64,000 nt of DNA, taken from IMG/VR virus record IMGVR_UViG_3300010316_000005, positions 32,001 to 96,000 of that record; one strand, given 5' to 3'. This DNA comes from a virus. The notes under the pieces are model-generated. The model saw nothing but the letters and a program-made list of their open reading frames with translations. It was not told the DNA's origin and did not search any database. This document shows, piece after piece, positions 3,874 through 42,687 of the stretch; positions within the stretch are counted from its first letter, which is position 1, and the number at the start of each line of letters is the position of its first letter. The translations under genes were made by a program, and so were the position numbers.

Positions 3874-4234
3874 TATATTTAAAGATTCAAAGGACTTCAT
3901 GGTGGCCATTGATCAGCACGAACCTAACCAAGCACAATTTGACTTGTATGTTAAACTAATCGACGAAGAACATAGCGAACTACATGACGCAATTGAAGCA
4001 GATGATCGGGTGGAGCAGCTCGACGCTCTTGTTGACATCTTAGTTGTAACTGCCGGAGCAATCAACTCAATGGGTGCAGATGGCGAAGGCGCGTGGAACG
4101 AAGTGATGCGCACTAACTTTGCTAAGGTCGATCCAGAAACAGGCAAGGTTCGCAGACGCGAGGACGGAAAAGTTTTGAAAGGGCCTAATTGGGTTCCGCC
4201 TAATTTAGAGCCTTTCTTGTCTAAATTAAAGTAA
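3866..4234 (+). CDS. MazG-like / PRA-PH-type NTP pyrophosphohydrolase
   Basis: LIDEEHSEL...EQLDALVDIL...EVMRTNFAK...REDGKVLK. Confidence 0.8.
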   Translation: MTNIFKDSKDFMVAIDQHEPNQAQFDLYVKLIDEEHSELHDAIEADDRVEQLDALVDILVVTAGAINSMGADGEGAWNEVMRTNFAKVDPETGKVRRREDGKVLKGPNWVPPNLEPFLSKLK

Positions 4235-4886
4235 ATCTGTTTTTATACAATTTGTTAGGATTATACCTAACAGCCCAAAATAGTCCGCTGCGGTTTATCC
4301 CTAGCGGACTTATTTTTTCTTCAAAATTATGTCTATTGAACATTGTCCGTTCTCCAGTGTGCATGTCTAGTAGTACATAATCTTTAACAGGAATTGGTCG
4401 AATTTCGTTTCGACGCTTAACTCCTTCTGAAATCTTTTTAGAAACTTTTTTAGAGGTAGTATTACCGTAATTCCAGTGGCTTTTTCCAGTCATGCGATCT
4501 ATGTGTTGAGCCACTCTTTCTTTGTCATCTTTCCAGCCGTGTCCTTTCTTTGCTTTAGAAATGTTTGCCTTTGTTTCTTTTGACATTACCCAGCCAGCAT
4601 TGCCATCGCCGCCGTCTGTTTTATTATGTAATATGCCAGTACCGTTGTCTATGCGCCCATGCCATCTTATTAGGCGCCGTTCTAATGCTAACGCGCCTAC
4701 ATCTGTTAGATTAGATTCTAAGATGAAAATATTCGAAAAGTCTTTTTTTGGAAATATAGTTCTGTCTGATCTAGCCCATGCTCGTTTACCACATCCTTTA
4801 CCTATGTAATAAGGTGTTCCGTTATCTCTTATGTAAGCATAGACGTAAAAATCTTTAGGCAAGTTGTTTTTAGAGTAAATATTCAT
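4221..4886 (-). mobile_element. Free-standing GIY-YIG homing endonuclease with NUMOD3-like motifs
   Basis: YVYAY...PYYIGKG...R...LERRLI...LHNKTDGGDG; MSKETKANISKAKKG; antisense insertion. Confidence 0.85.
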
Positions 4887-4913
4887 GCTGATAGTTCCTT
4901 TTAAAATTCAACT

Positions 4914-4962
4914 GTTAGAGTAGTCAGGTACGCCAATACCGTGGACTACACTTATATTTATA
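4914..4962 (-). promoter_or_regulatory. Late promoter TATAAATA followed by structured 5' leader hairpin
   Basis: TATAAATA at 4962-4955; GTAGTC-CAC-GGTA-ttggcg-TACC-T-GACTAC at 4949-4920. Confidence 0.7.
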
Positions 4963-4980: not shown

Positions 4981-5043
4981 AGGGAAGATGTTCTTAAACC
5001 CGCAGACTGGAAAGCACCTGAACTAGCACCTTTCCTAAAATAA
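4981..5043 (+). pseudogene. Orphaned duplicate 3' end of MazG-like gene
   Basis: Translates REDVLKPADWKAPELAPFLK*, versus current C-terminus REDGKVLKGPNWVPPNLEPFLSKLK*. Confidence 0.8.
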
Positions 5044-5046
5044 CCG

Positions 5047-5075
5047 TTGACTCCTTGTAATTTTTATGCTATAGT
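5047..5075 (+). promoter_or_regulatory. Sigma70-type promoter, extended -10
   Basis: TTGACT-17-TATAGT with TG. Confidence 0.7.
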
Positions 5076-9856: not shown

Positions 9857-9895
9857 TTGCTGTTCCTTTCAATAAGATAAAGAAAGGAACAGCAA
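9857..9895 (+). promoter_or_regulatory. RBS-sequestering hairpin upstream of homing endonuclease
   Basis: Perfect 14-bp inverted repeat TTGCTGTTCCTTTC / GAAAGGAACAGCAA covering SD and A of ATG. Confidence 0.8.
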
Positions 9896-41954: not shown

Positions 41955-42612
41955 GAAACTTCATAGGCTGTATAATTCTTATATGGCCTATTTTTTTTAA
42001 TATATCTATGAAATACTTGATAATTTAAGTTTTGTGTGTTACACCATTCCCTAAGACTAAACACAGAAAATTCTTGGTTAGTTTCTAAATTACAAATTAT
42101 CCATTTTTAGCAGTCGTTTTATACTTTATGTCAGACAACGTCTTTCCAGTATTCCACGGTTTACGTCTCTTAGTAGCATTACTAATTTTGTTAGCATGAT
42201 CTTTAGATATAGTCCGGCCCTTTTGTGCTAAACTCATTCGTGCCTTTTGTTCTAGTGATCGTTTCTTTCCGGTATTATATTCGTGTAAATCAAATTCGAC
42301 CATAGCATATGTTTTGTTTAACCATTTATCAGAAGTTGCTGCCTTTAGCCTTAACAAAACTTTATGCTCCTATATTTTAGCAGACTTGGCATCAGAAAAG
42401 GTGTTTCTAACTTGTATTATATCAGGCTCTCCGTATTTTTCTCTATATTTAGAGACTTCTTTACTCGAAGTAAAATAGGTTGTCCAAAGATCATTAGGGT
42501 GACAACCTGTCTCATAAAGACAATATTTTTGTTTAGCATACCTCATTCCATAATAGTACTTGTTTAGATCAGACTATCCGATTAGATATGTGTAAGGTGT
42601 ATAAATATTCAT
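41951..42612 (-). pseudogene. Degenerate GIY-YIG-like/NUMOD3 homing endonuclease (2 in-frame TAG, 1 frameshift)
   Basis: MNIYTPYTYLIG*SDLNKYYYG...YFTSS...KI*EHKVL...WLNK; frameshift in A-run near 42105. Confidence 0.8.
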
Positions 42613-42634
42613 GCTGGAACTTCCTTTCTTGTTC

Positions 42635-42687
42635 TAGAGTAGTTAGGGAGACTACCACATATCCCGTGAACTACACTACTATTTATC
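42635..42687 (-). promoter_or_regulatory. Late promoter and structured 5' leader hairpin (copy 2)
   Basis: GATAAATA then GTAGTT-CAC-GGGA-(12 nt)-TCCC-T-AACTAC. Confidence 0.7.

Follow-up and report, generated by a model that had tools for sequence, protein, structure and literature searches.

Free-standing homing endonucleases have to be expressed strongly enough to spread without harming the phage that carries them. [quoted passage not shown] The module described here resembles them in the predicted occlusion of the nuclease ribosome-binding site and in a TATAAATA-type promoter located beside the structure. It differs in the origin of the anti-Shine-Dalgarno (anti-SD) arm, which in T-even phages belongs to the same RNA and is removed by the late promoter whereas in the module it would be supplied by the opposite strand (PMC2988022).

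Antisense RNAs form a second group of related systems. In the cyanophage S-PM2 the ~225-nt antisense RNA CfrI links an endonuclease gene to psbA; it spans the 3' end of psbA together with F-CphI and occupies one locus only, in cyanomyoviruses (Millard et al. 2010, ISME J; PMC2984593, PMC12197685). CfrI resembles the module as an antisense RNA from a T4-like phage overlapping the gene of a free-standing homing endonuclease; it is co-expressed with that gene and thought to regulate it. Compared by description, the module RNA is different in its predicted length of ~70 nt, its confinement to the nuclease 5' UTR and its defined two-hairpin fold, and also in being portable among three nuclease classes within a different group of uncultured phages, where no psbA context was seen. 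Our covariance model found nothing in Synechococcus phage S-SRM01. The phage cis-antisense RNAs sar of P22 and OOP of lambda are 68-77 nt long and end at intrinsic terminators (PMC12197685). Their promoters face and converge on those of their targets, as is predicted for the module, and the ribosome-binding region of the target is what sar pairs with. They differ from the module in controlling an antirepressor or cII of temperate phages at one fixed locus each, and they are neither mobile nor linked to nucleases. A further counterpart is SymR/SymE of Escherichia coli, a type I toxin–antitoxin system in which a short antisense RNA is transcribed from a promoter within the first codons of a nuclease-like toxin gene. 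SymR covers the 5' UTR, the SD and the start of the SymE gene, which is chromosomal, SOS-controlled and present in a single copy. For the phage module, by contrast, there is no evidence of an addiction role of the toxin–antitoxin kind.

The DNA analyzed here (the window) comprises 64,000 nucleotides, i.e., positions 32,001-96,000 of the IMG/VR record IMGVR_UViG_3300010316_000005, a contig of 175,736 bp. It belongs to an uncultured phage whose clamp loader shares 50% identity with its counterpart from the Pseudomonas jumbo phage PA5oct. The module is a segment of 85-90 bp at the 5' end of free-standing homing-endonuclease genes. Two copies on the minus strand, A (4962-4884) and B (42687-42610), can be read directly with the layout given in the original prediction and with ATG codons at 4886 and 42612. 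Their order on this strand is a TATAAATA or GATAAATA box, five nucleotides, a bipartite hairpin, UCUA, AAAGGAA, four nucleotides, CAGC and ATG AAT ATT TA. The pattern joining both halves of the stem has two matches in the window, and 100 shuffles gave none. A third, diverged copy detected by the covariance model lies on the minus strand of the same record outside the window (G000:C1:6153-6256). The features of copies A and B are as follows, with the basis of each in brackets.

4221..4886, minus strand: nuclease A, an intact GIY-YIG-type protein of 221 aa with NUMOD3 (ORF, Pfam NUMOD3)
4874..4881, plus strand: copy A, antisense promoter-type box AGTAAATA (read directly; family-wide box statistics and frozen synonymous sites)
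4887..4960, plus strand: copy A, predicted cis-antisense RNA of ~70 nt (fold; putative ends)
4888..4918, plus strand: copy A, hairpin HP2' (fold, parse of 67 versions, RNAalifold)
4920..4949, plus strand: copy A, hairpin HP1', the one noticed originally (fold, covariation)
4955..4962, minus strand: copy A, sense promoter-type box TATAAATA (read directly)
4981..5043, plus strand: orphan former 3' end of a MazG-like gene, REDVLKPADWKAPELAPFLK followed by a stop (translations)
42100..42612, minus strand: nuclease B, a GIY-YIG/NUMOD3 pseudogene (translation, codon list, NUMOD3)
42600..42607, plus strand: copy B, antisense box, a perfect TATAAATA (identity with L040 stops exactly here)
42613..42685, plus strand: copy B, predicted cis-antisense RNA of ~70 nt (fold; putative ends)
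42614..42637, plus strand: copy B, hairpin HP2' (fold, parse)
42639..42674, plus strand: copy B, hairpin HP1' with a loop of 12 nt (folds, covariation)
42680..42687, minus strand: copy B, sense promoter-type box GATAAATA (read directly; module identity with L040 begins here)

In copy A the sense box is one of just 16 perfect TATAAATA boxes across 175 kb and would let the nuclease mRNA begin at G4949. The hairpin on this strand (4949-4920) reads GTAGTC-CAC-GGTA-TTGGCG-TACC-T-GACTAC and is followed by TCTAAC, the SD AAAGGAA (4901-4895), CAGC (4890-4887) and the ATG (4886-4884). Read on the plus strand, the same hairpin HP1' has an outer stem of 6 bp, a single pair between two bulged G, an inner stem of 4 bp and a loop of 6 nt. 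HP2' is built from the arms CUGAUAGUU (4888-4896) and AACUGUUAG (4910-4918), which form 9 bp including two G·U, and its loop exposes the anti-SD UUCCUUU. The predicted antisense RNA runs from G4887 through both hairpins into the U-rich tail ACUUAUAUUUAUA (4950-4962), part of which is the reverse complement of the sense box, and it is complementary to the nuclease 5' UTR over its full extent. It folds into two hairpins and a tail with -17.5 kcal/mol (z -2.56). Copy B has its hairpin at 42674-42639, the SD at 42627-42621, CAGC at 42616-42613 and the ATG at 42612-42610 of the minus strand. Its HP2' arms CUGGAAC and GUUCUAG pair over 7 bp including one G·U, with the anti-SD again in the loop, and the antisense fold of two hairpins and a tail reaches -18.3 kcal/mol (z -2.13).

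Scanning viral contigs with the ribosome-site and start motif yielded 45 loci and a looser pattern 100 loci. The hairpin was found upstream in all pattern matches though it was no part of the patterns. A covariance model was built from 60 distinct versions and then used to find further copies; the additional ones occur on several contigs, with up to three per locus, some of them with AAGGAG or GGGAG as ribosome site. Altogether at least 67 distinct versions are present on ~100 contigs of uncultured phages, and a free-standing nuclease gene stands behind every one of them. These nucleases fall into at least three classes (GIY-YIG/NUMOD3, HNH_3 and DUF7487/TnsA-like), so the suggestion of a cassette common to unrelated nucleases, made originally from two genes, was borne out. 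In Rfam 15 no match was obtained either at the gathering thresholds over the window or with E values up to 10 at either copy. Megablast and blastn searches with the region and with a consensus-like copy gave no match among 50,697 phage records, and the covariance model found nothing convincing in the phages PA5oct, Phosso, RsoM2USA, Atu_ph07 and S-SRM01. The sole match in those five phages, of 23 bits in Atu_ph07, shows no hairpin on inspection. Pattern matches in 185,579 prokaryote genomes numbered 17; they are due to chance and the covariance model recognizes none of them. The structured RNA is real, widespread and uncatalogued. As for its extent, copy B and the module of locus L040 share ~100% identity over exactly the stretch that begins with ATAAATA and ends with TATTTATA, and they are unrelated on either side. 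This means that the borders of the module are the two inward-facing boxes.

The original prediction had named two compensatory pair changes between copies A and B. These are real, and the covariation turned out to be very strong in a larger alignment: among 60 sequences read on the nuclease strand 10 of the 11 pairs of hairpin 1 show double changes, and the covariation score of 0.725 compares with 0.230 after shuffling and was reached by none of 500 shuffles. Pairing of hairpin 1 on this strand amounts to 93.5% and falls to 30-44% when the partners are slid, and RNAalifold recovers the helix unaided. What had been regarded as an invariant CAC/U internal loop dissolves in the 67 versions into one pair, formed by the middle nucleotide and the lone 3' nucleotide, between two single-base bulges. 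On the nuclease strand this position combines CGC with C in 40 sequences, while CAC is combined 10 times each with U and with C, and CGC is never combined with U; read on the antisense strand it is G-C 40 times, A-U 10 times and G·U 10 times, and never A·C.

Since an A·C combination on one strand corresponds to G·U on the other, such an asymmetry of pairing assigns the strand that folds. Hairpin 1 on the nuclease strand contains no G·U in 660 cells, and 38 of its 43 non-pairs are A·C or C·A; of 600 stem cells counted on this strand, Watson-Crick pairs make up 567 and the remainder comprises 28 A·C or C·A, four U·U and one C·U, with G·U absent. When the 67 versions are aligned on the antisense strand, pairing holds in 96.9% of the 1338 cells, with 168 G·U, not a single A·C or C·A, and double changes at 14 of 20 pairs. 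Hairpin 1 is paired to 99.3% on the antisense strand versus 93.5% on the nuclease strand. Hairpin 2 forms on the antisense strand with 7-9 bp in 63 of the 67 versions and comprises 442 Watson-Crick and 128 G·U pairs (22% of its pairs), with compensatory changes at pairs 4-7. The search patterns fixed CTCTAA, AAAGGAA and CAGCATG for most sequences, so that the invariance of these motifs is partly a matter of ascertainment, as are pairs 1-3 of hairpin 2 with their 66 wobbles; at positions free of the patterns ~102 G·U cells still stand against zero A·C. RNAalifold proposes both antisense helices unaided, including the lone pair between the two bulged G, and for every one of the 67 versions the antisense fold is the more stable (on average -18.7 vs -11.9 kcal/mol; p 1e-12 by Wilcoxon test). 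The selected structure lies on the strand antisense to the nuclease gene, and we regard this assignment as secure. It follows from the missing G·U on the nuclease strand, from a second hairpin that forms properly on the antisense strand only, from the greater stability and from the U-rich tail treated below that the conserved RNA is antisense.

This means that the structured RNA of the original prediction is real, conserved and covarying, yet the wobbles fit the strand opposite to the one on which it had been placed. Its proposed role as the 5' end of the nuclease's own transcript, i.e., a 5'-terminal stem-loop that binds a protein or guards the late transcript from 5'-end-dependent decay, has accordingly become improbable. 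Its merits are that, given the spacing of box, five nucleotides and G, the sense transcript is predicted to start at the hairpin's invariant first G, that hairpin 1 is still largely paired on the nuclease strand, that the subgroup with a displaced box (see below) has a different hairpin at its new predicted 5' end, and that in Aeromonas phage 25 a hairpin is known just upstream of the ribosome-binding site of seg43(25) (PMC2988022). The complete lack of G·U in hairpin 1, where A·C or C·A occurs 38 times, a sense fold that is weaker throughout, and the disruption of hairpin 2, whose 128 wobbles turn into mismatches, all contradict it, and selection on both strands would tolerate Watson-Crick pairs only. 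A hairpin may still form on the sense strand, but the data show no selection for sense pairing. A second sense-strand hairpin around the SD was considered and rejected, since the wobbles become A·C mismatches there, about two per stem. The two hallmarks of the T-even arrangement are missing as well: the SD sits in a loop and not in a stable stem of the nuclease mRNA, and the sense box lies upstream of both hairpins, where it would not omit a 5' arm.

Wobble asymmetry alone is no proof of RNA, as G·T is the most tolerated mismatch in DNA hairpins too. The antisense strand could thus fold as single-stranded DNA, for instance in replication or recombination-dependent homing. We consider this very improbable because no nicking or origin features were seen, and because transcription accommodates the promoter-type box as well as a U run placed immediately behind the hairpin and a structure that overlaps the mRNA leader exactly.

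Read in its own direction, the antisense RNA consists of a G, hairpin 2 with the anti-SD UUCCUUU in its loop, one A, hairpin 1 with 11 pairs and two bulged G, and ACUUUUAUUUAUC. Seven predicted RNAs were folded and all of them adopt two hairpins and a tail, with z between -1.3 and -3.3. Among the 8 nt that start 2 nt past the stem of hairpin 1, 5-7 are U in 66 of 67 versions. A stem-loop directly followed by a U-rich tract, the sequence signature of an intrinsic terminator, is confined to the antisense strand; the hairpin of the nuclease strand has UCUAAC behind it and no terminator look. Hairpin 1 and its tail look like an intrinsic terminator, at which the antisense transcript would end. A simple terminator scan does not flag the site, owing to the bulges, and the two invariant bulged G are not accounted for by an antisense model. 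A possible pseudoknot joining the loop of the hairpin to the CAGUUGA linker was inspected too; a few cases looked complementary, but no consistent pattern emerged. Six versions (L008, L013, L032, L060, L083 and L096; e.g., L008:5330-5400, plus strand) have lost the sense TAAATA box from the tail site and kept the U run. There GTGTCAAYAAAAATG replaces the sense box, and an extra small hairpin is found with a (T/G)ATAAATA box behind it, ~40 nt further upstream; TTGACA occurs in the reverse complement.

The boxes at both borders have the appearance of promoters. The 80 nt upstream of the ORFs of this genome contain 25 of its 53 occurrences of ATAAATA, a 12-fold enrichment that is exceeded among 7-mers by the ribosome-site motif alone. 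Four of the 16 perfect TATAAATA boxes of the genome belong to its three modules, two on the sense and two on the antisense side; the copy B antisense box is among the eight perfect ones on the plus strand (record position 74600). Each of the two boxes is followed by five bases and then an invariant G. The original prediction of a promoter box at a fixed distance was sound, and a sense transcript would begin at the first G of the hairpin; the designation of the box as late is open to doubt, as it also precedes the DNA polymerase gene.

The antisense box coincides with coding sequence: the reverse complement of nuclease codons 2-5 (NNT ATT TAT N) reads N-ATAAATA, i.e., an (A/T/G)ATAAATA box. In copy A AGTAAATA is followed by TTCAT and G4887, and in copy B the perfect box is followed by TTCAT and G42613. 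Of the 68 versions across the family, 48 have xATAAATA, 8 have xGTAAATA and 11 have xATAAGTA; TAAATA is present in 57 of 68; among versions not selected for their first codons it is present in 38 of 49. Synonymous sites are frozen: all 54 of 54 isoleucines at codon 3 are encoded by ATT vs 41% in gene bodies, T is the last base of codon 2 for 66 of 68 module-bearing versions vs 33%, and L056 and L070 keep ATATTTA in a different reading frame. A homologue without the module in the same genome (G000:C1:157,6xx, plus strand, outside the window) starts with MSWKKF-YVYQYIRED instead of MNIY-YVYQYIRED and has an unrelated leader, which argues that the first four codons belong to the module and not to the protein family. 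The freezing of these codons could partly be due to the needs of translation initiation or to a recombination junction. The 11 of 68 versions with TAAGTA may possess a poor promoter, and copy A has AGTAAATA and not xATAAATA in this position.

The genome contains about eight nuclease-like genes and only three of them carry the module. Proteins A and B are barely similar to each other. Nuclease B has in-frame TAG codons at positions 13 (42576-42574) and 81 (42372-42370), both where Trp is expected. It is broken by these two changes alone (TGG to TAG; Trp in relatives), its other three Trp codons being intact. Suppression was considered and discarded since the record contains no tRNA gene, so that nuclease B is read as a pseudogene. 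Truly disrupted nuclease genes are found in 3 of 67 cases (copy B, L040 and L065) and their modules are intact. At L040:5940-6210 and L065:9523-9646 intact modules stand beside heavily decayed ORFs, and the L040 module equals that of copy B almost base for base although the broken ORF behind it is a different one. This suggests that modules are exchanged or survive longer than their genes.

Another GIY-YIG nuclease gene of the same phage, with its ATG at 9895 on the plus strand, is preceded by a perfect 13-bp inverted repeat formed by TGCTGTTCCTTTC (9858-9870) and GAAAGGAACAGCA (9882-9894), which would pair the ribosome site AAAGGAACAGCA in cis. Its ribosome site and spacer resemble those of the module family, and the hairpin (9858-9894) is a classical example of the T-even type (PMC2988022). 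One and the same phage thus appears to occlude similar ribosome sites in two ways, by a cis hairpin and by an antisense RNA.

Nuclease genes A and B are both antisense to their plus-strand neighbours. By crude ORF calls, and hence approximately, ~80% of cassettes are antisense to their neighbours and ~20% co-directional: among 54 cassettes the upstream neighbour is divergent in 44 and the downstream one convergent in 41, while 10 are co-directional with their neighbours and retain the module. Copy A illustrates the mode of insertion. The orphan end of the MazG-like gene lies 18 nt past the module, at the edge of the inserted cassette, and the working MazG-like gene terminates in REDGKVLKGPNWVPPNLEPFLSKLK and a stop (4151-4234, plus strand); from this arrangement it is deduced that the cassette was inserted within the MazG-like gene and brought a replacement 3' end with it. 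A sigma-70-like promoter (TTGACT, 17 nt, TATAGT, with TG) is located at 5047-5075 on the plus strand, directly after the orphan gene end and just ahead of the gene of an Rv2179c-like exonuclease. With the promoter in this position, the exonuclease gene may begin at a later ATG or be leaderless. A preQ1 riboswitch, suggested by a nearby QueE gene, found no Rfam support and was discarded.

These surroundings bear on the main competing explanation, in which the module is a cassette-borne terminator or insulator without a promoter of its own that ends, or stabilizes at their 3' ends, transcripts of flanking genes reading antisense through the nuclease gene. The evidence for the antisense strand (wobbles, stability and U run) fits it equally, as do the divergent upstream and convergent downstream neighbours. 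In copy A the split MazG-like gene received a new 3' end, the module occupies the distal end of the insert, and a separate sigma-70-like promoter serves the gene that follows. Such a terminator needs hairpin 1 and the U run alone, however, which leaves the conservation of hairpin 2 over, and it explains neither the frozen synonymous sites and the box over codons 2-5 nor the border of the module exactly at the antisense box. Moreover, the co-directional cassettes keep the module, and the simple terminator scan passes over the bulged site. We therefore consider this explanation unlikely, though it is the strongest of the alternatives.

A promoter that faces outward is a further option. Here the antisense box would drive the neighbouring phage gene in compensation for the insertion, and the hairpins would be its 5' leader or attenuator. 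At most loci a neighbour indeed starts on the same strand ~30-110 nt past the U run, and host-gene promoters embedded in endonuclease genes are known from T4 (PMC2988022). Nevertheless, transcripts of this kind would be terminated by the hairpin and its U run, conservation of the module is no lower with the neighbour on the other strand, and the neighbours vary from locus to locus while the RNA is complementary to the nuclease leader only. This makes the outward promoter a poor candidate.

The portable module probably encodes a cis-antisense small RNA of ~70 nt that covers the nuclease leader and limits nuclease expression. According to this antisense model, transcription of the nuclease mRNA would be driven by the nuclease-strand box and that of a small RNA by the box on the opposite strand, the small RNA beginning at the G of GCUG just ahead of the nuclease start codon and ending at the U-rich tail after hairpin 1. 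Being perfectly complementary to the entire nuclease 5' UTR, the small RNA would pair with it and thereby block the ribosome-binding site or trigger cleavage of the duplex; the convergent promoters would add interference. As a net effect, nuclease expression would be held down. The RNA lies on the opposite strand and its complementarity takes in the translation-initiation region, spanning the whole 5' UTR including the SD. From these sequence features we infer the firing of the antisense box, the termination in the tail and the repression of the nuclease, and both start and end of the RNA are predictions. Read-through from antisense neighbour genes, which ~80% of the cassettes possess, would yield the same RNA without a promoter of its own.

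More tentatively, the module can be considered as a self-contained governor that unites promoter, leader, antisense RNA gene and terminator in less than 90 bp, travels with nucleases of at least three classes and is swapped among them, similar to a type I antitoxin. Its antisense RNAs would perhaps act in trans as well and set one common ceiling, which might be possible because copies within one genome share conserved leader segments. If true, such a trans-acting ceiling could account for the survival of intact modules beside nuclease genes that have decayed.

The known solutions for restraining free-standing homing endonucleases are cis hairpins and autorepression, and an antisense module would be a third. 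If true, a compact mobile antisense-RNA module is common to GIY-YIG, HNH and PD-(D/E)xK-like nucleases. An uncatalogued RNA family with very strong covariation support is hereby added to phage biology, and the asymmetry of its wobble pairs provides a clean example of how a structure can be assigned to its strand. As a defined part of 85-90 bp the module is amenable to direct reporter tests.
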